Both the position numbers and the translations under genes were made by a program. Shown in pieces: positions 1 through 37,497 of a stretch of DNA of 38,194 nucleotides. This DNA is from a virus. Taxonomy: Duplodnaviria; Heunggongvirae; Uroviricota; Caudoviricetes. Position 1 is the first letter of the stretch; each line of letters starts with the position of its first letter. The stretch lies in IMG/VR virus record IMGVR_UViG_2537562192_000020; one strand, 5' to 3'. A model generated the notes under the pieces. That model was given only the letters and a program-made list of their open reading frames with translations, was not told the DNA's origin and made no database searches.

Positions 1-1682
<1,682 letters not shown>

Positions 1683-3251: not shown

Positions 3252-3920
3252 TTAACTTTCTGCCGCCAAAGTGCCGCCACTGCATTTGTCGCCTAAACGC
3301 CTATTTGAAACGATTAATCTCTCGGCGATCTTAATCTTGGAGAGCTTATCTAGGCAGATAAAGCATATTGCTACTCCCGATACCACAAAATAGCTGCTTA
3401 AACCAAAGTATTGCCAAGTAGTTAGATGGTTTATCTTCTCCATCATCTTAGCACTTACTACAACAGAATAACTGAAAGGAAGTGCTACGATGAGACTGCC
3501 CATGAAGTAAATTAGAGTTGTTATAATTTTTATTAATTTTCTATATATGCTGTATTTATATCTTTTTTTATTCCATGCGAATATTTCTTTATGGGTGGTA
3601 ATGGAAATTAGACTTTGACATTTGGAATAATCATCTATATCGCTAACGGGGTTTGTTGTGTTGAGTAATATTAATCTTTGTTTTTTTGTCAATGTGTTAT
3701 CTTTGGTTAATGCAGCAATGCCGTAATCTTCCGCCAGTTTTTTGAAGGTCGGATCTTCACTGCTTTTATACATCTGATATGAAAATTCGCTAATGTTTTT
3801 ACGTGATGTGAATAGTTTGTCTTTTTTATAAGTCCACCCTGTTTTAAGCCCTAATAAGGATATAATGGCAGATAGGGAAGGGAATAATATTTTTATAAGT
3901 AACTCTAGTTCGCTATTCAT
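3252..3920 (-). CDS. hypothetical membrane protein (AT-rich moron between int and attL)
   Basis: 222-aa ORF with about 3 predicted hydrophobic helices; strongly AT-rich relative to the phage backbone; GAGGT RBS before ATG at 3920; immediately downstream of int on the same strand. Confidence 0.55.
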   Translation of the reverse strand: MNSELELLIKILFPSLSAIISLLGLKTGWTYKKDKLFTSRKNISEFSYQMYKSSEDPTFKKLAEDYGIAALTKDNTLTKKQRLILLNTTNPVSDIDDYSKCQSLISITTHKEIFAWNKKRYKYSIYRKLIKIITTLIYFMGSLIVALPFSYSVVVSAKMMEKINHLTTWQYFGLSSYFVVSGVAICFICLDKLSKIKIAERLIVSNRRLGDKCSGGTLAAES

Positions 3921-3930
3921 AAATTACTAC

Positions 3931-4947
3931 TTACCTCAAATTAAATAAAGGATTTTTAGTTACGGCATCTTCTAAATGGTCTGGGGCGAAGTGTGCATAG
4001 ACCATGGTCATTTTTATATCTGAATGTCCTAGGATATCCCGCAAAACCAATATGTTTCCACCATTCATCATAAAATGGCTAGCGAATGTATGACGCAGAA
4101 CGTGAGTACATTGACCCTCTGGCAGATCGATACCAGCCCGCTTTACTGCACGCTCAAAGGCTTTTCTGCATGGGGTGAATAACTTCCCCCTATTCTTAGG
4201 CAGTTCTTCATATAAATCCTTAGAAATAGGCACAGTTCGGTTTTTCTTGCCTTTGGTCTTGGTATAAGTGATACGGTATTTTGATACCTGATGACTCTGC
4301 AGGTTTTCGGCTTCGCTCCAGCGTGCGCCGGTGGCCAGGCATATTTTTGCAATCAAAAGCAGGCTGGAGCTTTGAGAATCGGCGCAGGCATCCAGCAGAC
4401 GTTTAATTTCTTCCGGGGTCAGGAACGCCAATTCACTCTCAGCAATTTTAAATGTTGGCAGCCCAGCAAGCGGGTTGGGGGCTGACCAGTGGCCCAGCTT
4501 TTTCAGTGTACCAAAAACAGATGATAGATTGCGCTGTTCAAGGTTTACCGTGCGGGGCTTAACGGGCGACATAAACGTGCCATCTTCATTTCGTACTTCA
4601 CCTTTTAACCGTGCTTCGCGGTATTTCGTAAAGTCACCGGCTGTCAGTTCTGAAGCGATGGGATCGCCTAGACCATTACAGATAATTCTAAGTTTCGCTA
4701 TGAGGCGCTTGGGGTCTGCGAGTGTTTGACCATACAGGGAATACCACTGCTCAATTAATTCTGATAGGTGTCGCCGATCTTCCTTTTCCCCCAGCCATGG
4801 TTTTTTGTTCACTTCTTCCATTGTGAAGCTTTCAAAAGCAATGGCTTCGCCTTTCGTAGCAAATTGCTTACGCACGCGCTTGCCATTGCGTCCATTGGGA
4901 TAGCACTCGCACAACCATTTACCGTTTGGCTGTTTTCTGACAGTCAT
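3931..4947 (-). CDS. int: tyrosine integrase (P2/186 Int family)
   Basis: 338 aa; C-terminal R...HxLRHT...Y catalytic signature (VLRHTFASHF...MVYAH); adjacent to att repeat. Confidence 0.9.
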   Translation of the reverse strand: MTVRKQPNGKWLCECYPNGRNGKRVRKQFATKGEAIAFESFTMEEVNKKPWLGEKEDRRHLSELIEQWYSLYGQTLADPKRLIAKLRIICNGLGDPIASELTAGDFTKYREARLKGEVRNEDGTFMSPVKPRTVNLEQRNLSSVFGTLKKLGHWSAPNPLAGLPTFKIAESELAFLTPEEIKRLLDACADSQSSSLLLIAKICLATGARWSEAENLQSHQVSKYRITYTKTKGKKNRTVPISKDLYEELPKNRGKLFTPCRKAFERAVKRAGIDLPEGQCTHVLRHTFASHFMMNGGNILVLRDILGHSDIKMTMVYAHFAPDHLEDAVTKNPLFNLR

Positions 4948-4949
4948 GT

Positions 4950-5582
4950 TTAGATACTCTTTATTACTTTGACTGCACGCCCAATAACTTCCACATCATC
5001 AGCAGAGCACTCGAAAGACGCTTCATCTTGATTTACTACAATCTTATTGCCGGGAATCCGCATGATTTTTGCAATAATAATCATTCCATCAATATTGATA
5101 AGCCAGAATCCATTGCTGACTTGTTTAACTGATTTATCGATGAGATAACAATCAGTAGGGGTTTCTAAGAACATCGATTCTTCATAATCTGCAGGTAATA
5201 TGCTGTGGTCTAGGAAAATCTCTTCATCAATACTGAGTTGTCCATTTTCCAAGGTTCCTTTAGGAATAGATGGAGTTATGAGTTTGGATAACGGTTTAAT
5301 TGCTTGTTTGTTCTCGTTATGAGATCTTTTCTCAGGCTCGTATCCTTCTTTCATGCTTCCCTGTCCAGTGGCTAACCAAAGTAACGAAACACCGGTTTCT
5401 AGTGCACACTGAATTATCCAGTCAGCAGGAAAACTGTCACGTAACACTCTGTTTGCCATAGTACTTTTTGAGACATTCAGGTGCTCGCTTAATGCCTGCT
5501 TAGTTGTGAATCCATAAGCCTCAAGCAGCCTCTCAATAGCTGCCTTACCTCCCGTATCGGAACCCATTCTGATGTTTAACAT
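4950..5582 (-). CDS. cI: CI-type immunity repressor (186 CI-like)
   Basis: 210 aa with N-terminal HTH (LSEHLNVSKSTMANRV); positioned between int and divergent early operon as in phage 186. Confidence 0.7.
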   Translation of the reverse strand: MLNIRMGSDTGGKAAIERLLEAYGFTTKQALSEHLNVSKSTMANRVLRDSFPADWIIQCALETGVSLLWLATGQGSMKEGYEPEKRSHNENKQAIKPLSKLITPSIPKGTLENGQLSIDEEIFLDHSILPADYEESMFLETPTDCYLIDKSVKQVSNGFWLINIDGMIIIAKIMRIPGNKIVVNQDEASFECSADDVEVIGRAVKVIKSI

Positions 5583-5595
5583 TGGTAATCTCCAT

Positions 5596-5624
5596 TTGAC
5601 AATCTTGAATCAAGATCGTAATGT
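5596..5624 (+). promoter_or_regulatory. candidate early lytic promoter pR with palindromic operator in spacer
   Basis: TTGACA (5596-5601), 17-bp spacer, TAATGT (5619-5624); spacer holds the perfect palindrome ATCTTGA-A-TCAAGAT (5602-5616). Confidence 0.45.
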
Positions 5625-5703
5625 CTTCGTGTCTCTTGATGTGAGAGTTAAAGAGACGAGCTAAAACGAACTAACACGCACACAAAGTAAGAGATACTGC
5701 ACT

Positions 5704-5946
5704 ATGAGTACTGATATTTCAATTCGTGTACCAAAAGAGATGGCTACGCCTGCAGAGTTCGCAGAGTGGGAGGGCATTTCCCGTGGCTCTGTTTACCAAA
5801 AAATTCACCATGGTCAACTTGCTAAGTACATGGTCAAGAAAGAAAAAAATAAAGGCCGCGTAAGCCTTCGTTATCTGATGTACAAAACTGATCAGGTCCG
5901 TGAATCCCTCGGTCATTCCAACTTCCGCGTCATTGTTGGTAAGTAA
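5704..5946 (+). CDS. apl: Apl/Cox-like excisionase-repressor (small HTH protein)
   Basis: 80-aa first gene of rightward early operon, divergent from cI; position matches 186 apl / P2 cox. Confidence 0.5.
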   Translation: MSTDISIRVPKEMATPAEFAEWEGISRGSVYQKIHHGQLAKYMVKKEKNKGRVSLRYLMYKTDQVRESLGHSNFRVIVGK

Positions 5947-5978
5947 GTTCAATTATGGGAACTTTCTAAGGGGGCACC

Positions 5979-6488
5979 ATGTTTGATTACAAGATTTCCA
6001 AACATCCGCATTTCGATGAAGCCTGTAGGGCTTTTGCACTGCGTCACAACCTGGTGCAACTGGCAGAACGTGCAGGCATGAATGTGCAGATTCTGCGGAA
6101 CAAGCTGAACCCAGCTCAGCCTCATTTATTAACCGCACCAGAAATCTGGCTGCTTACCGATCTGACTGAAGATTCAACGCTGGTAGATGGTTTTCTGGCA
6201 CAGATTCATTGTCTGCCATGTGTACCGATTAATGAGGTGGCAAAAGAGAAACTGCCGCATTACGTCATGAGCGCAACTGCAGAGATCGGGCGTGTTGCAG
6301 CAGGTGCGGTATCTGGTGATGTAAAAACTAGTGCCGGTCGTCGTGATGCTATCAGCAGCATTAACTCTGTAACACGACTGATGGCGCTGGCGGCTGTTTC
6401 ATTGCAGGCCCGTTTACAGGCTAATCCTGCGATGGTGAGTGCAGTTGATACCGTGACTGGCCTCGGTGCTTCATTCGGTTTGCTGTGA
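5979..6488 (+). CDS. cII: CII-like lysogeny establishment regulator (186 CII-like)
   Basis: 169 aa, HTH near N-terminus ([19 protein letters not shown]); size and position match 186 cII. Confidence 0.55.
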
Positions 6489-6495
6489 GGTGCTT

Positions 6496-6792
6496 ATGCT
6501 GACGAAAGAACCATCATTTGCATCGCTGCTGGTAAAACAAAGCCCGGCAATGCACTACGGTCACGGCTGGATCATGGGTGAGGATGGTAAACGCTGGCAT
6601 CCATGTCATTCACAAGATGAATTGCTGTCTGAATTGACCACGAGGAAACGGAGAAAGTCAAAATGTATGCAGCGGAAAGTGAAGTGGTTTATCAGTTTCG
6701 TTACAGAGGGGAGAGTTATTCAGTACCTGAAGATGATTTGCTCTGTTGTTATCCGTCGTTGTCGGGCGATGGCAGTTACTTTTTCACGCTAA
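6496..6792 (+). CDS. hypothetical early protein (possibly Fil-like); 3' part overlaps next ORF and may be spurious
   Basis: ATG at 6496 with GAGGTG RBS right after cII stop; overlaps 6663-6887 in a different frame. Confidence 0.3.
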   Translation: MLTKEPSFASLLVKQSPAMHYGHGWIMGEDGKRWHPCHSQDELLSELTTRKRRKSKCMQRKVKWFISFVTEGRVIQYLKMICSVVIRRCRAMAVTFSR

Positions 6793-6887
6793 GGGATGGG
6801 ACGTTTTTACGGGGAGAGCAGGTTAAAGAGACGATACGAAAAAATGTATCTCCTCTTGAACGTTACCGTAAGAACAAAGAACGATAG
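6663..6887 (+). CDS. hypothetical early protein
   Basis: 74-aa ORF with GGAGAAAG RBS. Confidence 0.45.
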   Translation: MYAAESEVVYQFRYRGESYSVPEDDLLCCYPSLSGDGSYFFTLRDGTFLRGEQVKETIRKNVSPLERYRKNKER

Positions 6888-7779: not shown

Positions 7780-8078
7780 CAGGGGCTGTGCGTATCCATC
7801 AATTAAAAATTGCACCTAAGTATTTCAACGCTGTGGTTGCAGGTCAAAAGACGGCTGAACTTCGTAAAGACGATCGTGGCTATAAAGTTGGTGATGTTCT
7901 TTCTCTTTGCGAATGGAAGCATGGCGTATTTACGGGTAGGGAATGGGCCGCGGTTATCTCTCATGTGCTTCCGGTTAATGACGTCATGGCAGTTTCAGAA
8001 CAATGGGTGATGCTATCAATTCGCTCATTAACCCCATTAGAAGCTTTAGGATATGTTATTGCAGGAGGTGCTGTATGA
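7776..8078 (+). CDS. ASCH/DUF3850-like small protein
   Basis: ATGA overlap start; [36 protein letters not shown] resembles ASCH/DUF3850 (from memory, unverified). Confidence 0.5.
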
Positions 8079-8932
8079 GCACCATCCTGAAATGGGCGGG
8101 TAATAAAACCGCCATTATGTCCGAACTGAAAAAACACCTTCCTGCAGGCCCGCGACTGGTTGAACCTTTCGCGGGTTCTTGTGCTGTGATGATGGAGACG
8201 GATTACCCCAGCTATCTGGTTGCGGATATTAATCCTGATTTAATCAACCTCTATAAAAAGGTTGCCGCTGATTGTGAATCGTTTATATCTCGCGCCAGAG
8301 TTTTATTTGAGATCGCAAACAGGGAGGTGGCTTATTACAACATAAGGCAGGAGTTTAATTACTCCACTGAAATTACTGATTTCATGAAAGCGGTATATTT
8401 CCTGTATCTCAATCGTCACGGTTACCGTGGTTTATGTCGCTATAACAAGAGCGGGCATTTCAACATTCCCTACGGTAATTATAAAAATCCGTATTTCCCT
8501 GAAAAAGAACTTCGCACATTTGCAGAAAAAGCCCAGCGAGCAACGTTTATCTGCGCAAGCTTTGATGAAACGCTGGCGATGCTGCAGGTGGGGGATGTGG
8601 TGTATTGCGATCCGCCGTATGACGGTACGTTTTCCGGCTATCACACTGATGGTTTCACTGAAGATGACCAGTATCACCTGGCATCCGTTCTTGAACATCG
8701 GTCATCAGAAGGACATCCGGTCATTGTTTCTAACAGTGATACATCCCTGATCCGTTCGCTGTATCGCAATTTTACTCACCACTACATCAAGGCAAAACGC
8801 AGCATCGGTGTAGCAGCTGGTGAGAGTAAATCTGCAACAGAAATCATCGCTGTTTCCGGGCCGCGCTGCTGGGTGGGATTTGATCCTTCGCGTGGCGTGG
8901 ATAGTTCTGCCGTGTACGGAGTGCGTGCATGA
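8075..8932 (+). CDS. dam: DNA adenine methyltransferase (Dam-like, D12 class N6-MTase)
   Basis: N-terminal KWAGNK...EPFAGS AdoMet motif and DPPY catalytic motif ([10 protein letters not shown]). Confidence 0.8.
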
Positions 8933-11343
8933 GCCATGCTGATATGAACAACTGCAGCGGCTTTAACGAGGTCGCCGCAGCATTCTCATGGAACAGCCCG
9001 AAAAAGGCCATTAACCCTTATCTGGACCCGGCGGAAGTTGCGCCGGTTTCTGCGCTTTCAAACCTGATCACTCTGTACGCTACCGATAACGAGCAGGAAC
9101 AACTGCGCCGCGAGGCTCTGAGTGATCAGGTATGGGAGCGTTATTTCTTTAATGAATCACGTGATCCTGTCCAGCGCGAAATGGAGCAGGATAAGCTCAT
9201 TAGCCGGGCAAAGCTGGCGCATGAGCAGCAGCGTTTTAATCCGGGCATGGTCATTCTGGCGGACGTTAACGCCCAGCCTTCCCATATCAGCAAGCCGCTG
9301 ATGCAACGTATTGAATACTTCAGCAGCCTGGGCAGGCCAAAGGCTTATTCCCGCTATTTGCGTGAGACGATTAAGCCATGTCTGGAACGACTGGAGCATG
9401 TACGCGACAGTCAGCTATCCACTTCTTTTCGCTTTATGGCAAGCCATGAAGGGCTGGACGGTCTGCTGATCCTGCCTGAAATGAGTCAGGATCAGGTGAA
9501 ACGCCTGTCCACCCTGGTAGCTGCGCATATGAGCATGTGCCTTGATGCCGCTTGTGGCGATTTGTATGCCACCGATGACGTTAAGCCAGAAGAAATCCGC
9601 AAGACATGGGAAAAGGTGGCGGCGGAAACCCTGCGACTGGATGTCATACCGCCTGCGTTTGAGCAACTCCGCCGGAAAAGAAACCGCCGTAAACCCGTGC
9701 CCTATGAACTCATTCCGGGGTCGCTGGCGCGTATGCTGTGCGCCGACTGGTGGTATCGGAAATTGTGGAAGATGCGTTGCGAATGGCGGGAAGAGCAGTT
9801 GCGTGCTGTTTGCCTGGTCAGCAAAAAAGCATCTCCCTATGTCAGCTATGAAGCCGTGATGCATAAACGTGAGCAGCGCCGTAAGTCGCTGGAGTTTTTC
9901 CGTTCTCATGAACTGGTGAACGAAGACGGCGACACGCTGGACATGGAGGATGTGGTAAACGCCAGCAGCAGCAACCCTGCGCATCGCCGCAATGAGATGA
10001 TGGCCTGTGTTAAAGGTCTGGAGCTTATCGCGGAAATGCGCGGTGACTGCGCCGTTTTCTACACCATCACCTGTCCGTCACGTTTCCATTCCACGCTAAA
10101 TAACGGTAGGCCCAACCCGACCTGGACAAATGCGACGGTAAGACAAAGCAGTGATTATCTGGTCGGCATGTTTGCTGCATTTCGTAAGGCGATGCACAAA
10201 GCCGGGTTGCGCTGGTATGGCGTGCGGGTGGCTGAGCCGCATCATGACGGCACAGTTCACTGGCACCTGTTGTGTTTCATGCGCAAAAAAGACCGCCGCG
10301 CCATTACTGCATTGTTGCGTAAGTTTGCTATCCGTGAAGACCGCGAGGAGCTGGGTAATAACACGGGGCCACGCTTTAAGTCTGAGCTGATAAACCCGCG
10401 CAAAGGAACGCCGACTAGCTACATCGCGAAATACATCAGTAAGAACATTGACGGGCGTGGTCTGGCTGGCGAGATCAGCAAGGAAACGGGTAAATCTCTG
10501 CGTGATAACGCTGAATACGTTAATGCCTGGGCGTCTCTGCATCGTGTTCAGCAATTCCGCTTCTTTGGCATTCCGGGGCGTCAGGCTTACCGTGAACTGC
10601 GATTGCTGGCTGGTCAGGCGGCAAGGCAACAGGGTGACAAAAAAGCAGGTGCGCCGGTACTGGATAACCCGCGCCTTGATGCCATTCTGGCTGCAGCTGA
10701 TGCTGGTTGTTTTGCCACCTACATCATGAAGCAGGGCGGCGTACTGGTTCCCCGTAAATATCACCTCATCAGAACCGCTTATGAAATCAACGAAGAGCCG
10801 ACCGCCTATGGCGATCACGGCATTCGTATTTATGGCATCTGGTCACCCATTGCAGAGGGCAAAATCTGCACTCATGCCGTGAAGTGGAAAATGGTTCGTA
10901 AGGCCGTTGACGTTCAGGAGGCGGCAGCCGACCAGGGCGCTTGCGCCCCTTGGACTCGTGGCAATAACTGTCCCCTTGCTGAAAATTTGAACCAACAAGG
11001 GAAAGACAAATCAGCTGATGGGGATACCAGAACGGATATCACCCGCATGGATGACAAGGAGTTGCACGATTACCTGCACAGTATGAGCAAAAAAGAACGC
11101 CGGGAACTGGCAGCAAGGTTACACCTGGTTAAACCGAAACGGTGTAAAGACTACAAACAGCGAATTACAGACCATCAGCGACAGCAGCTCGTGTATGAGC
11201 TGAAGTCCAGAGGGTTTGATGGTAGCGAGAAAGAGGTCGATTTACTCCTTCGCGGCGGCAGTATTTCGTCAGGAGCAGGCCTGCGTATCTTCTATCGGAA
11301 CCAGCGTTTGCAGGAAGATGATAAGTGGCGAAACCTGTATTAA
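8929..11343 (+). CDS. A: replication initiation endonuclease gpA (rolling-circle initiator)
   Basis: 804 aa; HUH-type region (VHWHLL) and YIAKYISK tyrosine motif typical of P2/186 A. Confidence 0.85.
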
Positions 11344-11695: not shown

Positions 11696-11929
11696 ATGCG
11701 CATTGAAATAATGATCGATAAAGAGCAGAAGATTAGCCAGTCTACCCTGGACGCCCTTGAATCCGAGCTTTACCGTAATCTGCGCCCCCTGTATCCCAAA
11801 ACGGTAATTCGTATCCGCAAAGGTAGCTCTAACGGTGTGGAACTGACCGGACTGCAACTGGACGAAGAAAGGAAGCAAGTGATGAAAATTATGCAGAAGG
11901 TGTGGGAAGACGACAGCTGGCTGCATTAA
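11696..11929 (+). CDS. DinI-family protein (186 Tum-like antirepressor module)
   Basis: MRIEIMIDK...KIMQKVWEDDSWLH resembles E. coli DinI; GAGGTGA RBS. Confidence 0.7.
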   Translation: MRIEIMIDKEQKISQSTLDALESELYRNLRPLYPKTVIRIRKGSSNGVELTGLQLDEERKQVMKIMQKVWEDDSWLH

Positions 11930-12064
11930 GAAACGTTGCTGGCGTCTGAACTTGTTTCTGGCGTCAGCAAGGTTGAACAACGAGCCCTTGCGAGGCGTTA
12001 GCTCTGTAGTGCATGTCTATGCCGCATGAGATCGCATGATCGTTTGAGGATCGTTTTTGCTAAG

Positions 12065-12088
12065 GCCCGCCAGAACTGGTGGGCTTTT
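12065..12088 (+). terminator. rho-independent terminator after Tum-like operon
   Basis: GCCCGCCAG-aact-CTGGTGGGC (one G-U pair) followed by TTTT. Confidence 0.55.
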
Positions 12089-12133
12089 GCGTAGATCATG
12101 CAGGTGCATGAAAACCACTACATAAAGCGGGCA

Positions 12134-12152
12134 GGCGTGGCGGGGATACGAG
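12134..12152. other. candidate cos site (cohesive-end sequence of P2/186 type)
   Basis: GGCGTGGCGGGGATACGAG; first 13 nt match my recollection of the 186/P2 19-nt cohesive end (GGCG[T/A]GGCGGGGAAAGCA). Confidence 0.45.
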
Positions 12153-12292
12153 CGCGCGCCGAAGCGATTACGTAAGAGTTTTGGCTATTGATGTCATAGT
12201 GAACTTAATGATGGAGAAAGTGTCAACCTATGTGTAAACTACAGTTAGTAAGATAAAGAGATATGAGATGAAACAATTTCAAGGAGGGCGGC

Positions 12293-13102
12293 ATGAGTAC
12301 TAACAGCGAACGTATGTCCAATGCGCCCGTTTACTATGCATTGGTACAGGTAAAGTTTACTCCAATAGCTGCAATGAGTAAGTATGTTCCAGACATACAA
12401 GATGCGCTAAGAGTTGAGGGATTTCCTTTATTTGAGGTTTCCAATACAACTCAGTTGAAATTTGAAATAAAAAACCCCAATGAGCCACCGGTACATTCAT
12501 TTGAGCCTGTGACAAGTTGGTTGATGATTGATGCAGATAGAAGATCTGGTTTTGTTTTAGGCAACGATTTCATTACGTTCCATACAACATATTATGATAA
12601 CCATGTATCTTTCATCTCGTCATTGATACTTGGTCTGAGCAAAGTTCTAGAATTTGCTAAGCCATCGCTGTTAAGTCGGATTGGGCTTCGATATTTGGAT
12701 GCTGTGTTTCCTGAGAAAAGCGAAACAATTGAGCAGTATCTTGTAAAGGAACTTCATGGTGTTGATTTCGGATGGACGCCAATACAGTCTATACAAGAGT
12801 CCGTATATCAGACATGTGTTGAGCCATTGATCCCTAATGGATTTATGGTTTCACGAATACATAAGATGAATGGTCAGCTAGGTTTTCCGCCAGATATGAT
12901 TCCTAATGGTTTACTGCCGTTGCCGAGATTTAGTAACACAGAGCATCGTATGCACGCAATAATTGATACAGATCATTATGTTGAAGGCAACATGTCAACT
13001 GATTTGCAGTTAATTGAAAAACAGATTCTTTCGTTGCATAGTAAAGTTAAAGAAGCATTTGAAGGCATGGTTTCAGATTTTGCCCGTACTAAATGGCACT
13101 GA
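12293..13102 (+). CDS. hypothetical protein, cargo gene 1 of cos-proximal cassette
   Basis: 269 aa; AGGAGGG RBS; AT-rich; contains RIGLRYLD segment; no similarity to P2/186 core proteins recognised. Confidence 0.7.
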   Translation: MSTNSERMSNAPVYYALVQVKFTPIAAMSKYVPDIQDALRVEGFPLFEVSNTTQLKFEIKNPNEPPVHSFEPVTSWLMIDADRRSGFVLGNDFITFHTTYYDNHVSFISSLILGLSKVLEFAKPSLLSRIGLRYLDAVFPEKSETIEQYLVKELHGVDFGWTPIQSIQESVYQTCVEPLIPNGFMVSRIHKMNGQLGFPPDMIPNGLLPLPRFSNTEHRMHAIIDTDHYVEGNMSTDLQLIEKQILSLHSKVKEAFEGMVSDFARTKWH

Positions 13103-13121
13103 AACAACGGAGGTGACTAAA

Positions 13122-13784
13122 ATGTATGCAATTCCCACCGGAAGCATAGGCTCTGTAGATCGATATTCTCCAAATTTGCAGTCAAGCTCATGTGTATCAG
13201 GTGTTGTTGCTGTCGCCGCATCTTTACTATTAGTTGGTACGGGGGCTTCATACCCTGTAAATGCTTATAAGCAATGGCGTCAGTATGTTCAGCCAAGGGT
13301 TCAGTTTGCATTTGATTCCATAGAATCAACGTACACGCCTGCAATTTCTCCTGAGGTTGATGTCAGGAATGTTGCCCAACATTTAGCTAATATTCGAGAA
13401 GTGCTGTCTCCATCAATGTCAGAACTGGCAAAGGATTTGGGGATAACTCGGCAGGCTCTCTATAAATGGTTGTCAGGGGAGAACCAGCCTGATGATGCTT
13501 CAAAAGTGCAATTCATTACCAACCTTAGTAATGTCGCTGACTCTTTTTCCAAAGCTGGACTCCATGATGCGAAGCTATTGGTGAAAATGAAAGCATTTAA
13601 TGGTAAGTCATTAATGGACGTAGTAAAAGAAGGTGAGGATTGGAATAGGGCAGTTCAGGTATTGATTGATGAAGCTAAAGCGATGAATGCTGCTGCTGAA
13701 TCGGCCAATTACTTAGCAAGCAAGGCGAAACCGACAGATGATTGGAAGTCATCTATTTCAATTCCTGGAACGGTAGAGGAATAA
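13122..13784 (+). CDS. hypothetical HTH (XRE-type) protein with N-terminal hydrophobic segment, cargo gene 2
   Basis: GGAGGTGA RBS 9 nt before ATG 13122; hydrophobic stretch VSGVVAVAASLLLVGTGA; HTH SMSELAKDLGITRQALYKWL. Confidence 0.6.
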   Translation: MYAIPTGSIGSVDRYSPNLQSSSCVSGVVAVAASLLLVGTGASYPVNAYKQWRQYVQPRVQFAFDSIESTYTPAISPEVDVRNVAQHLANIREVLSPSMSELAKDLGITRQALYKWLSGENQPDDASKVQFITNLSNVADSFSKAGLHDAKLLVKMKAFNGKSLMDVVKEGEDWNRAVQVLIDEAKAMNAAAESANYLASKAKPTDDWKSSISIPGTVEE

Positions 13785-13793
13785 ATCACATTT

Positions 13794-14642
13794 ATGTTGG
13801 TACGAGGAACATCATGGCGTCAGGGGCATGTACTTAAACATGATGATGCCGTTTCACTTGGAATTCTGCAGCCTGATGAAACGAACCATAAAGTTGTAGT
13901 TATAACGCATGATTGTGATTTACAGAGTAATTCAGAAAAAAACGTGGAACTGATGTTTGGCCCCTTGAAAAAGGGGTCAAGCAGGATGAAAAGAGCTAAG
14001 CATCCGAGAATACTCGATCTATGTTTTGAAAACCCAGAAAGTGCGAAGAAGAATGCAGTAGAGCTCCGGCATGAAAGGAAAGTCATCATTCCTAAAGAAG
14101 CTTTCTGTTGTGAGGAAAACGATCCAGCATTCTCCATTAGCACAGAAGAGAAACAAGCTCTTAAGCAATGGTTAGCTGCTAAGTATGGTCGTCCAGCGTT
14201 TCCTAACTCGTTTGAAGAGCGCTTGCGGGCTTACGACGAGGATAAAAAGTTTATTTTCGAAAAAGAAGTTGCGGATATTATCGCCACAAACGCAGAGCAT
14301 TTGATCGGAGTTTTTTTCGATTTGGGCGAAGAAAGATTTAACGATCTTGAGGAAGGCATACCATATGAGCTTTCTATCAATGTTGTTTATGATGCAACTG
14401 AAGGTGGCCCCGATGCCAGAAGAGCGGCTGAACAAACATGTTCTGATCTAAAGGCTTTGTTTTATAAGTTTTATGGTGATCCAACCTTGGGGCATTCAGA
14501 ACTTATAGAATTGAATACGTGCATAGCTGTTGCTGATACTCATTTCTCCCTGTATGCATTGAGGCGGATGGATCAATGGAGGGTAGAATACATCAGCCTT
14601 GAAGAAGATTCATATGGCGATTTCATTGGTGCCGGTGTTTAA
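13794..14642 (+). CDS. hypothetical acidic protein, cargo gene 3
   Basis: 282-aa ORF 9 bp after gene 2; no recognisable motif. Confidence 0.55.
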   Translation: MLVRGTSWRQGHVLKHDDAVSLGILQPDETNHKVVVITHDCDLQSNSEKNVELMFGPLKKGSSRMKRAKHPRILDLCFENPESAKKNAVELRHERKVIIPKEAFCCEENDPAFSISTEEKQALKQWLAAKYGRPAFPNSFEERLRAYDEDKKFIFEKEVADIIATNAEHLIGVFFDLGEERFNDLEEGIPYELSINVVYDATEGGPDARRAAEQTCSDLKALFYKFYGDPTLGHSELIELNTCIAVADTHFSLYALRRMDQWRVEYISLEEDSYGDFIGAGV

Positions 14643-14667
14643 ACTGGCTGTTCCGACAGCCAGTTTA
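14642..14667. terminator. bidirectional terminator-like hairpin between cargo cassette and portal gene
   Basis: AAACTGGCTG-ttccga-CAGCCAGTTT perfect 10-bp inverted repeat between convergent genes. Confidence 0.5.
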
Positions 14668-14679
14668 AACAGGCTTTAA

Positions 14680-15714
14680 TCAAGTATTGCCTAATTTATA
14701 TTCGTCAAAACGAATAATTTCGTCATTAAGCCATTCATTTAATTCAATTAGCCTTTTTTGTAATGGAATTAACTCGTTACGAACAAATACATGACTCGCC
14801 TTTTCGACATCCCCAAACCCCCCAACATTATTCGGCATAATCCCCATCATTTGCGGCGGCACGCGGTGCGCTGCCATCATGTCATCCCGACTCACGTTCT
14901 TGATGTTAAGAAATTCATCCTTCGCTGCGACTTCTGACAACGGGATAATCTGAAGTCCGTCCTTTTTGCCGTTAGGCGAGTACATAAACAGATTGCGGAA
15001 GTTGCCTGGACCTTTGGCGCTTTTCATCGCGTTGCGGAGGTTGTTCACATCCTCCTGATTCTGCGCGGCGTCGGTCATGTACATGATGAAGCCTGCATGA
15101 CTACCGTTGATGTAATACTTACGGCGGAACAGCGTGGCGGATTCGTTGAGCAGGGCGGATGGAATGGCAGAAAGATAGCCGGGCAGGCCGTAGATCTCCT
15201 GGTTGATGTCCGGTTCCATCAGATGAAAAATGCTGCCTTTCGTGAACTGATACGGCTGGGTTGTCATACCGTATTGCACAAACCAGTAGGTATCCAGGTC
15301 TAACCCGCGTCGGGTGTATTTTGCCAGCGCAGGCTCAAGGGCGATAACTTCACCGAATCGGTTCGTGCGTTTCTCCAGGTAGGCGTTACCAAATACCAGA
15401 TAGTCCTGCACAAAACGCGAAAAAGCCTGTTGGCTGAGCAGCGGATGAGGGATATAGGTACTGGTCAGAATGTTGCACTTTACTGCAATCGGGGAACTGT
15501 GATGCACGGCAGCGCGGAAGGTGCGCGCCAGTCCGTCAAAGCTGACGGGAGGCTCATACCAGCGATCTGTCTGAACACATTCCACATAGTCCAGCAGTTC
15601 GCGGCGGTCAAGTACTGGAACGGGATCACCGAAGCTGAATGCTTCGGCTGAAGTCTGGTTTTTATGCTGGATCTGATTCGTCGCCGCAGCGCGGTTTTTC
15701 TTACTCTTTCCCAT
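14680..15714 (-). CDS. Q: portal protein gpQ
   Basis: Strong similarity to recalled P2 Q (FGDPVPVLDRR..LDYVEC..WYEPPVSF..LFRRKYY). Confidence 0.9.
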   Translation of the reverse strand: MGKSKKNRAAATNQIQHKNQTSAEAFSFGDPVPVLDRRELLDYVECVQTDRWYEPPVSFDGLARTFRAAVHHSSPIAVKCNILTSTYIPHPLLSQQAFSRFVQDYLVFGNAYLEKRTNRFGEVIALEPALAKYTRRGLDLDTYWFVQYGMTTQPYQFTKGSIFHLMEPDINQEIYGLPGYLSAIPSALLNESATLFRRKYYINGSHAGFIMYMTDAAQNQEDVNNLRNAMKSAKGPGNFRNLFMYSPNGKKDGLQIIPLSEVAAKDEFLNIKNVSRDDMMAAHRVPPQMMGIMPNNVGGFGDVEKASHVFVRNELIPLQKRLIELNEWLNDEIIRFDEYKLGNT

Positions 15715-17480
15715 CAAAAAATCTCCACAATATTGCTGGTATTGGCGGACTCGCCCTGCAGCGGTTCGTTAAACAGTGCGTGCATTGTTGCCCAGGCCAG
15801 ATCGGCGTGGCTGGCTTCTTCGCTGCGGCTGGCTTCATAGGTCGGGCGGTTGCCACTGGCGGTGGTGGCACGACGGATTGCCATGAATGACTGCGCAATG
15901 TCGGTGTGCCCGGCGTCAAACTCCAGACGGCGGTGGCTGATAATGTCGTAGGCCTTGAGTACCAGGGCATTTTTAACGTTGGGGTTGTAGACAAACTCCC
16001 GGACGGCAGGAAAGAACGCTTTCACGTTCTCGTAAACTCCGTGACCGACACCTGTCGAGTCGATACCGATATAGGTCACGTTGTACTGTTCGGTCAGTTT
16101 TTTGATGGCGTCAGCCTGGGCGCGGAAGTCCATCCCGCGCCACTGGTGACGCTCAAGAATGCGAAACTTACCGCCTGGCACGGCTGGCGGTGCCACCACC
16201 ACGCATCCGGCGCTGTCGCCGTTCTGCGTACCTTTTGCCGGGTCATAACCGATCCACACTTCTCGCCAGCCAAACGGGCGCAGGGCCAGTGCATGAAAGT
16301 CGGTCCAGACTTCCCAACTGTCCACCATGCATGCCTGCAGCTCGCTGAGCGGAAATACGGACGCGAGATCGTCCACGAATTCACACATCAGCAGGTTCTG
16401 GTATTCGTCCGGGCTGTATTCCATGCGCAACTGGTCAAGGTCGAACAGGTTACAGCCGCCGCGCACCGCATCTTCCACGGTGACTATCTGGCGGTATTGC
16501 CCGTCTGCACACAGCAGGCCTGGAGCCAGATTGCTGTGGGACAGGTCGATGTCCACCTTGTCGGCTTTATTGCGCCCACGGTTGAATAGCGCACCGGACC
16601 AGAACGGATAAGCACTGTGTGTCAGGCTGGATGGCGTGGAAAAATAGGTTTGTCGCCATTTTTTGTGAATAGCCATACCGGAAGCCACTTTGCGCAGCTC
16701 CTGGAATTTCGGTATCCAGAAATATTCATCCAGATACAGGTTGCCGTGGTAACTCTGGGCCGTGCGGGCATTGGTGCCGAGGAAATACAGTGTGGCCCCG
16801 TTGGGAAGCACCATCGGATCGCCTTTCAGCTCCACTTCCACTTCTTTGGCGAAGTCGATGATGTACTGCTTAAAGACGTGGGCCTGTGCCTTGCTGGCGG
16901 AAAGGAAAATCTGGTTACGTCCGGTAAGCAGAGCGTCAATCAGGGCTTCACGGGCAAAGTAAAAGGTCGCGCCGATCTGGCGTGACTTCAGCAGGTTGCG
17001 GATGCGGTTGGTTTTTCCGGCTTCCCACCAGTGGCGCTGGTAGTTGAACATGGAGGAATGGAAGATTTCTTCCAGCTTCTCAATCTGCTCATCGGTGAAA
17101 ACATTCTTTTCCGGCTGACGGCGCGGGCCTTTGTTGCGGTTGGCGACGTTAGGGTTTAAGTCGGCTTCGTTGCCGCCATTGTTAAACTTGCCGATCCGCG
17201 CGTGGCGTTCCGACTGGCGCGCCAGCAGGTCAATCTCTTTGAAATCTTTCCCTTCTTTGTGCTCCTTCATAATGAGCTGGCAGTAGCGTGCGGCGGTGGT
17301 GAGCTGCATCTGATCCAGCGGCCCATAGTCACCCCACTTGTCGCGTTTCTTCCAGCTGTGAACGGTTGCAACTTTCTCGCCCAGCATTTCAGCAATGCGG
17401 GCTACACGGTATCCCTGAAAGTACAGCAGCATGGCCTGCCGACGGGGATCGAGATCTGCGGGTGTCAGTGTGGTGTTCAT
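15714..17480 (-). CDS. P: terminase large (ATPase) subunit gpP
   Basis: 588 aa; position and size as P2 P, upstream of Q on same strand. Confidence 0.85.
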   Translation of the reverse strand: MNTTLTPADLDPRRQAMLLYFQGYRVARIAEMLGEKVATVHSWKKRDKWGDYGPLDQMQLTTAARYCQLIMKEHKEGKDFKEIDLLARQSERHARIGKFNNGGNEADLNPNVANRNKGPRRQPEKNVFTDEQIEKLEEIFHSSMFNYQRHWWEAGKTNRIRNLLKSRQIGATFYFAREALIDALLTGRNQIFLSASKAQAHVFKQYIIDFAKEVEVELKGDPMVLPNGATLYFLGTNARTAQSYHGNLYLDEYFWIPKFQELRKVASGMAIHKKWRQTYFSTPSSLTHSAYPFWSGALFNRGRNKADKVDIDLSHSNLAPGLLCADGQYRQIVTVEDAVRGGCNLFDLDQLRMEYSPDEYQNLLMCEFVDDLASVFPLSELQACMVDSWEVWTDFHALALRPFGWREVWIGYDPAKGTQNGDSAGCVVVAPPAVPGGKFRILERHQWRGMDFRAQADAIKKLTEQYNVTYIGIDSTGVGHGVYENVKAFFPAVREFVYNPNVKNALVLKAYDIISHRRLEFDAGHTDIAQSFMAIRRATTASGNRPTYEASRSEEASHADLAWATMHALFNEPLQGESANTSNIVEIF

Positions 17481-37134: not shown

Positions 37135-37179
37135 TGGTGGAGCTGGCGGGAGTTGAACCCGCGTCCGAAATTCCTACAT
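37135..37179. repeat. prophage attachment-site direct repeat (right copy) = 3' end of intact ssrA
   Basis: Identical to 3122-3166. Confidence 0.85.
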
Positions 37180-37497
37180 CCTCGGTACTACATGCTTAGT
37201 CAGTCTTTACATTCGCTTGCCAGCTGCGGACGGACACGCCACTAACAAACTAGCCTGATTAAGTTTTAACGCTTCAACCCCAGGCAGGGCTTCCACGCGA
37301 TCTCTTTTGGGTTTGACCTCTCTTGATCCCCGTCCTAAGAGCGGAGGCTAGGGAGAGAGGGCTCTAAGCAGGTTATTAAGCTGCTAAAGCGTAGTTTTCG
37401 TCGTTTGCGACTATTTTTTGCGGCTTTTTACGAGGCCAACCGCCCCTCGGCATGCACCTTGGGTTTCGCAAATCCCGTCGAATCCAGAATCAGCCCC
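37135..37497 (-). ncRNA. ssrA: tmRNA (SsrA), 363 nt
   Basis: Reverse complement begins GGGGCUGAUUCUGGAUUCGAC and ends ...GUUCAACUCCCGCCAGCUCCACCA, matching my memory of E. coli tmRNA. Confidence 0.95.

Follow-up and report, generated by a model that had tools for sequence, protein, structure and literature searches.

What function is served by three AT-rich genes that occupy the interval between the cos region and the portal gene of a P2/186-like prophage? The question is raised by the IMG/VR virus record IMGVR_UViG_2537562192_000020, a stretch of 38,194 nucleotides (nt) that we refer to, at its full length, as the window, and in which three co-directional genes (g1, g2, and g3) form a compact cassette. 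An earlier note on this DNA, made from the sequence alone, took these genes for a horizontally acquired operon, most plausibly a defence or superinfection-exclusion system; every element that it described was found where it had been placed. Here we show that the three genes constitute an autonomous, horizontally mobile operon, carried as cargo at the cos-proximal hotspot of P2/186-like prophages. We address the function of this operon more tentatively: it may be a mobile, autoregulated, toxin-antitoxin (TA)-like abortive-infection (anti-phage) module, with g3 as the effector and g1 as a sensor or controlling enzyme. The cassette itself had already been catalogued, and new here are the colinearity of the triad across loci and a conserved repeat element upstream of it.

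A horizontally mobile three-gene operon

The three genes occur as a unit. Hidden Markov models (HMMs) of all three proteins match colinear neighbouring open reading frames (ORFs) in 63 of 66 loci, with the other three loci cut at a contig end. These loci were retrieved through g3 or g1 homology, a sampling that rare orphans or alternative partners could escape. Identity to the window co-varies among the three proteins (r = 0.97-0.99; 64 loci). The earlier note had named co-occurrence and synteny as a check on its idea of a single unit, and both measures bear that idea out. The genes of the triad are close-packed or overlapping. In the window, the gap between g1 and g2 is 19 bp and that between g2 and g3 is 9 bp, as previously described, and g2 encodes 220 amino acids (aa) where about 221 had been counted. 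Each gene also has the plausible ribosome-binding site anticipated for it, i.e., AGGAGG (12282-12287) for g1, GGAGG (13109-13113) for g2, and a weaker GAGGA ~11 nt upstream of the start for g3, all as read from the sequence.

Homologues of the cassette are numerous and phylogenetically dispersed. There are hundreds of homologues each of g1 and g3, and an exhaustive profile search placed g3 relatives in 1,959 clusters at 50% identity, all of about 260-290 aa. The triad is kept at 27-31% identity in locus L056 and in Ralstonia, Aeromonas, and Duganella loci, and down to about 22-30% in a set that includes plasmids of Meiothermus (Deinococcota) and Gloeocapsa (Cyanobacteria). Triads are likewise encoded on plasmids of Vibrio and on a phage-labelled Acinetobacter contig. 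On the Meiothermus, Gloeocapsa, and Vibrio plasmids, the RefSeq label of the first gene is TIGR04255, the family to which g1 belongs.

At the P2 hotspot, the triad is present in five or more divergent alleles. The clearest case is a pair of IMG/VR loci, L033 and L012, which both carry the cassette at 4500-6846 and whose triad alleles differ by about 40% at the protein level. Here, a 57-61% allele lies inside flanks whose identity to the window is 95-100% (98% for gpA, 100% for terminase, 95% for portal). This arrangement looks like allele replacement of one system at one hotspot. Outside P2-like prophages, triads are found in integrase islands and in a satellite-like element. An Arenimonas island places the triad beside a BrxR-type WYL regulator, an SNF2/DEAD helicase, a NYN protein, and a DUF1156 protein, and an island flanked by a serine recombinase combines it with Abi_2 and an HTH-peptidase M78 gene. 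One further locus adjoins a SLATT gene and another lies in a TA-rich region. The identical gene order at the hotspot, in unrelated islands, on plasmids, and on chromosomes strongly supports the proposal that the operon was acquired horizontally and acts as a unit.

As had been noted by eye, the cassette is more AT-rich than the flanking phage core: its GC content is 0.411, compared to 0.549 for the prophage core (15000-36000), and only 2% of equal-length windows have a GC content as low. The lowest-GC 2.35-kb stretch of the window falls inside the cassette.

In one metagenomic lineage (L058 6188-11106 and L059 18-3121), the triad is situated between two epimerase-family ORFs of 374 and 343 aa, within a region dense in PIN/MazE, RelB, and PemK genes. 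This configuration may reflect insertion into or beside a sugar-nucleotide epimerase gene.

The upstream element and the three proteins

Alignment of the upstream DNA identified a pair of direct repeats, with consensus GTGTMAAC, about 55 nt 5' of the g1 start codon (Table 1). The 38-kb window contains a single copy of the core of this element, GTCAAY-N6-GTAAA, where 0.03 would be expected. Across the loci, 63 of 67 contain exactly one such core, on the cassette strand and upstream of g1, and the remaining four lack that DNA. Beta- and alpha-proteobacterial triads have a second repeat pair, and related repeats of 12-bp period (e.g., GTGTAAAGTGAA GTGTAAAGTGAG) precede the triads of Meiothermus, Gloeocapsa, Vibrio, and Acinetobacter. 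The upstream element is more conserved than the triad proteins themselves, indicating that the cassette moves with its own control region.

A conserved TGG(A/T) box lies 17 nt upstream of TAAACT, the latter within the second repeat, and the region as a whole may thus represent a weak sigma-70 promoter with an overlapping operator. A consensus sigma-70 scan detected no promoter upstream of g1, the proposed site matching 8 of 12 positions where the threshold was 9 of 12. On the opposite strand, the reverse complement of the first repeat (GGTTGACAC) provides a perfect -35 hexamer, TTGACA (12222-12227, minus strand), which is directed away from the cassette, to cos.

The obvious candidate binder of the repeats is g2, because its recognition-helix motif, RQxxYxW, is invariant. 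The prior assignment of g2 as a helix-turn-helix (HTH) regulator gains from both this candidate operator and a match, marginal in score, to the Pfam family HTH_3 (PF01381; 23.6 bits, gathering 23, E 5.5e-5). HTH_3 was matched by 23 of 24 members of the g2 family, for which Pfam was otherwise empty. In addition, g2 matches phrog_8 (E 4.5e-15); its PDB profile matches cover the HTH only, as for CylR2; and it bears a weak HTH-level likeness to the antitoxin families dnstrm_HI1420, MqsA, and spr1629. In PADLOC-DB v2.0.0, g2 yielded only weak HTH-level matches, namely RmrA and mad1 (E at least 6e-4). These matches support g2 as an XRE/Cro-type HTH protein and candidate regulator.

The predicted layout of g2 comprises an N-terminal hydrophobic segment, an invariant GTG, the HTH (residues about 85-125), a helical C-domain, and a tail of the form SKAKPxxxWxSxxSIPG. 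Its hydrophobic segment is borderline for a transmembrane (TM) helix (median KD19 1.6), is lost in loci L034 and L045, and is absent from the Meiothermus and Gloeocapsa versions; we therefore did not rely on membrane anchoring, recorded elsewhere as '1 TM in protein 2' (Table S5B of Rousset et al., 2022). The start of g2 is disputed in public annotation, which in some entries begins a 122-aa product at an internal Met and in most gives 220 aa. The long form is supported by conservation of the N-terminal region across homologues from proteobacteria.

The first protein belongs to TIGR04255, an uncharacterised, 'sporadically distributed' family (NCBIfam). The earlier note had tentatively proposed this family from a short RIGLRYLD segment, and the proposal proved correct over the full length: residues 7-269 of g1 align to positions 1-252 of the 252-position TIGR04255.1 HMM with 180.7 bits (curated cutoff 30; E 4.3e-53). 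The RefSeq label of an identical protein is likewise TIGR04255. No Pfam, PHROG, or PADLOC match was obtained for g1, and a PDB sequence-profile search gave none either. Structure prediction by AlphaFold2 from a 52-sequence alignment was confident (predicted local distance difference test (pLDDT) 91, predicted template modelling (pTM) score 0.88). The model consists of a strand-helix-four strands-helix unit present in two tandem copies, matching the topology of the TBP repeat, and Foldseek favours AdoMetDC and TBP, at low TM-scores. A TBP-like antiparallel sheet built from a double repeat (double beta-alpha-beta4-alpha) is thus robustly predicted.

Certain g1 residues are retained throughout, down to the most divergent triads sampled, i.e., R40, R129-x-G-L-R-Y/F-x-D/N, E169, R188, and D225-x-D227. 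These Arg, Asp, and Glu residues alternate along strands, as expected of one face of a sheet, and their pattern would be typical of a phosphate or metal site rather than a DNA saddle.

For g3, the sole match was an unannotated PHROG (E 2e-6), with nothing in Pfam, NCBIfam, or PADLOC; the profile check named in the earlier note was hence productive for g1 (TIGR04255) and g2 (HTH) and empty for the third protein. Individual Pfam scans of 55 g3 homologues recovered nothing, including PF02452 PemK_toxin and NTP_transf_2, and neither did a PDB sequence-profile search. The g3 model is of moderate confidence (pLDDT 80, pTM 0.56) and has two domains joined by a hyper-conserved linker helix. Its N-domain has the SH3-like barrel toxin fold of MazF/PemK, giving a moderate fold match to MazF/CcdB/ToxN, and its C-domain, a three-stranded alpha/beta unit, moderately resembles minimal nucleotidyltransferases. 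A hhalign comparison of g3 with a small MazF alignment, in which three of the four rows were approximate, returned a probability of 0.1%. Reading of the sequence places a basic residue ahead of a hydrophobic strand, comparable to MazF Arg29. The residues conserved universally are Q10-G11, C41-D42 (HDCD in the window protein), R72, and, in the linker, W126, Y131, and R133. Hence, the earlier remark that no catalytic motif is recognisable needs amending, given that sharply conserved polar clusters are present in both g1 and g3. The likeness of g3 to ToxN/CptN led us to consider an RNA antitoxin of the type III TA kind; this was rejected, with only two to four 12-nt repeats present and these being upstream of g1.

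Such conserved clusters raise the issue of which protein would act on the target. One alternative keeps a defence role and rewires it, with g1 as an enzymatic effector or signal generator of phosphotransfer or ligase type built on a kinase-like/TBP-like sheet, g3 as sensor or adaptor, and g2 as a transcription factor only. A likeness of g1 to kinases is only a lead. Individual Pfam scans of 52 g1 homologues gave no match to ATP-gua_Ptrans (PF00217), GS, or any other family; the conserved ATP-binding arginines and catalytic Glu/Cys of phosphagen and protein-arginine kinases were not recognised in the g1 sequence; and kinases were not recovered by Foldseek. Moreover, g3 too has an invariant, catalytic-looking cluster and, in addition, a toxin-type fold. 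We consider the rewired scheme unlikely and retain g3 as the presumptive effector below.

Prophage setting and prior records

The window holds a P2/186-like prophage integrated adjacent to ssrA (Table 1). The interval in which the cassette resides, between gpA, cos, and Q, has been defined as a P2 defence hotspot (Rousset et al., 2022; PMC9122126). Both of the flanking hairpins described earlier fold stably. The upstream hairpin (-21.5 kcal/mol, z -4.3; 0 of 200 shuffles equally stable) is followed only by TTTTG. The downstream hairpin reaches -23.6 and -22.9 kcal/mol on its two strands (z -6.7 and -6.9, i.e., about -6.8) and overlaps the g3 stop codon. A simple consensus terminator scan missed both, on account of their short T-runs.

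We take the 19-mer between the upstream hairpin and the cassette to be cos, as presumed from established P2/186 biology. Of 5,426 complete E. coli genomes, 1,257 share the conserved 60-72 nt around it, as do Fels-2 and Klebsiella P2-like phages. Cos-adjacent sequences in Table S2 of Rousset et al. (2022; PMC9122126) are a further basis for this label.

Table 1. Coordinates of the cassette, its control region, and the surrounding prophage features in the window.
Feature	Position	Strand	Remarks
Replication gene A (gpA)	8929-11343		Flanks the cassette
62-aa ORF	Between gpA and cos		Together with the DinI-family gene
DinI-family gene	11696-11929		Pfam E 7e-23
Upstream terminator-like hairpin	12062-12092 (fold at about 12062-12087)	+	Closes the gpA/DinI unit; left hotspot boundary
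Cos-like 19-mer, GGCGTGGCGGGGATACGAG	12134-12152	.	P2/186-type packaging site (presumed)
Putative promoter/operator region	12201-12240	+	Position-specific conservation, 42 non-redundant loci
GAACTT box	12201-12206	+	Conserved, 42 non-redundant loci
-35-like TGGAGA	12212-12217	+	17-nt spacer to the -10-like hexamer
-10-like TAAACT	12235-12240	+	
Candidate operator repeat 1, GTGTCAAC	12220-12227	+	Direct, 12-bp period
Candidate operator repeat 2, GTGTAAAC	12232-12239	+	Direct, 12-bp period
g1	12293-13102	+	269 aa, TIGR04255 family
g2	13122-13784	+	220 aa from ATG 13122, XRE/Cro-type HTH
g3	13794-14642	+	282 aa, two-domain, unnamed family
Bidirectional terminator-like hairpin	14636-14671	.	16 bp; common to g3 and convergent portal gene Q
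Portal gene Q	14680-15717	-	Convergent with g3
tmRNA gene (ssrA)	37135-37497	-	Rfam, 295.8 bits; prophage attachment region, one window end

Three further features of the window were observed outside the hotspot. The other end of the window carries the Hfq-binding small RNA isrC (501-623, plus strand; Rfam, 150.4 bits). A 309-aa ORF (8003-8932, plus strand), immediately upstream of gpA and overlapping it, is labelled a DNA adenine methylase in a near-identical RefSeq prophage, making a phage-borne anti-restriction or epigenetic function possible. Finally, a 222-aa ORF (3252-3920, minus strand; GC about 0.31) lies between the integrase gene (3931-4947, minus strand) and the prophage end, an interval reported to be a minor site of P2 cargo. 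Its product is a hypothetical protein in RefSeq (WP_001083624.1) that lacks a Pfam match and weakly matches '1TM-TIR' in PADLOC (E 0.007). The window and NZ_CP027586 are not base-for-base colinear over their full length, and annotations of the latter were taken over only where the cassette regions match at 100% identity.

The description of the genes as uncharacterised was right, although they had been seen before: Table S5B of Rousset et al. (2022; PMC9122126) lists the cassette as system #59, labelled 'HTH_31' and with 69 occurrences. An identical cassette is present in 18 of 5,426 complete E. coli genomes, with the portal gene always adjoining, and is annotated there as 'TIGR04255 family protein / transcriptional regulator / hypothetical protein'. 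The exact three proteins are encoded on about 1,000 public contigs at least, from E. coli, Salmonella, Klebsiella, Citrobacter, Cronobacter, and Enterobacter, in each case with no functional name. A full-text search of a literature library found no mention of TIGR04255 or of the three protein accessions, and the cassette was not found in the P2/P4 swapping preprint or in the iLund4u and metagenomic-selection supplements. One hint comes from machine learning. In Table S3 of DefensePredictor, a TIGR04255 neighbour at position 1 has a mean SHapley Additive exPlanations (SHAP) value of +1.62 (n = 9), compared to 1.43 for AAA ATPases and 1.49 for DEAD/DEAH helicases; this positive value hints at defence.

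Possible function and comparison with known systems

A defence or exclusion role is suggested by association only, i.e., by the hotspot position, by the BrxR, Abi_2, and SLATT neighbours, and by the machine-learning hint. Allele swapping at the hotspot, together with defence-gene neighbours, is more typical of immune cargo. In the abortive-infection model that we tentatively favour, g2 would bind the two direct repeats overlapping the -10 region and repress the operon, and perhaps also restrain g3. Once released, g3 would be the effector, its N-terminal domain with the invariant Cys-Asp/Arg/Gln cluster attacking a target of host or phage origin, RNA being the most plausible. The TBP-like saddle of g1, with its invariant Arg/Asp/Glu surface, could function as sensor or controlling enzyme; by binding a phosphate-bearing ligand or phage product, it would couple infection to the release of g3.

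Much of this architecture would equally suit a plain addiction or stabilisation module, i.e., a tripartite toxin-antitoxin system kept on mobile elements through post-segregational killing, without significant anti-phage activity. The putative HTH autoregulator weakly matches antitoxin families, g3 has a toxin-like fold, the g2-g3 order is that of antitoxin then toxin, and triads reside on plasmids, in integrase islands, and among other TA pairs. However, the alleles exchanged at the P2 hotspot are divergent while their flanks are almost identical, defence genes are among the neighbours, and many of the TA systems carried there are in fact defensive, e.g., CmdTAC. Addiction as the sole function therefore seems to us improbable.

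Several observations weigh against the abortive-infection model. Direct repeats are unusual for XRE dimers. On inspection, the C-domain of g3 lacks the nucleotidyltransferase motifs (GS...DxD), i.e., hG[GS] after beta1 and [DE]x[DE] on beta2. Neither g1 nor g3 has a match in PADLOC-DB v2.0.0. Although Rousset et al. catalogued the cassette, the systems that they cloned (Tables S2A, S2B; PMC9122126) do not include it; no published phage-protection test of it was found in those tables or in Table S6 of DefensePredictor, and no TIGR04255 gene is among the units screened in the DefensePredictor supplement. Some triads are located at ordinary chromosomal sites (Duganella, Shewanella), and not all cargo at the hotspot is defensive, partition systems and cytolethal distending toxin being carried there too (PMC9122126).

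The last points bear on a non-immune accessory role, whether as a prophage or host regulatory module, as a small metabolic or stress operon, or as counter-defence cargo. Non-defence cargo at the hotspot, triads between housekeeping genes, unmatched defence profiles, and certain database names for g2 ('repressor protein from prophage') would all fit such a role. Yet the triad also occurs outside prophages, in unrelated elements and phyla, and does so with its own candidate operator, which indicates that it is not tied to P2 biology; its AT-richness, linkage to integrases, and allele swapping are features typically seen in selfish or immune cargo. We regard a non-immune role as distinctly improbable, more so than either of the other alternatives.

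More broadly, TIGR04255 could conceivably mark an unnamed three-gene immune system that spans phyla (Pseudomonadota, Deinococcota, Cyanobacteria) and whose mechanism would be unlike those described, combining a TBP-like saddle enzyme or sensor, an HTH reader of 12-bp-spaced repeats, and a Cys-Asp effector of MazF fold. We hold this broader proposition to be rather doubtful. Should phage protection prove true, a function would be gained for the orphan TIGR04255 family and for the roughly 2,000-cluster g3 family that has no Pfam model, and a widespread system missed by current PADLOC models would be added to the defence catalogue. The cassette is found in pathogen lineages too, and may change the phage susceptibility of strains that matter for phage therapy. 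Should it be only an addiction module, or inert, it would be one among many unexplained hotspot cargos. The conserved candidate operator provides a handle both for studies of regulation and for detection of the system in genomes.

Comparison with known systems sets the individual proteins apart. There is no sequence relation between g1 and either the TBP-domain superfamily or the phosphagen and protein-arginine kinases (McsB), and, in contrast to the DNA-binding TBP saddle, the conserved face of g1 has Asp and Glu besides Arg. Relative to MazF/Kid/CcdB and ToxN/AbiQ/CptN, g3 has in addition an invariant Cys-Asp motif not known from MazF, the hyper-conserved linker helix, and a second domain. 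The cassette has neither a MazE-type nor an RNA antitoxin, the repeats of type III antitoxins being much longer than its 12-nt ones. It differs from HEPN-MNT and other minimal nucleotidyltransferase modules in that g3 lacks their hG[GS] and [DE]x[DE] motifs and no HEPN partner is present.

At the level of the whole system, two tripartite cassettes of the same hotspot are the closest comparisons. Rst_3HP ('hp + hp + hp'), which has been validated against P1 (Rousset et al., 2022; PMC9122126), likewise consists of three proteins with no predicted domains; their lengths are 335, 345, and 225 aa, compared to 269, 220, and 282 aa here. Identity of the two cassettes was rejected, as the best BLASTP match to Hp1-Hp3 of E. 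coli E1114 (Table S2A) had an E value of 0.044 over 28 aa. The second is CmdTAC (PD-T4-9), a tripartite toxin-antitoxin-chaperone system that, like the present cassette, comprises three small co-transcribed genes at the cos-proximal P2 hotspot. A conserved C-terminal tail is a trait of chaperone-dependent antitoxins, and g2 has such a tail. The logic that we propose for the cassette would also be alike, with an effector held in restraint and a third protein tying infection to its release.

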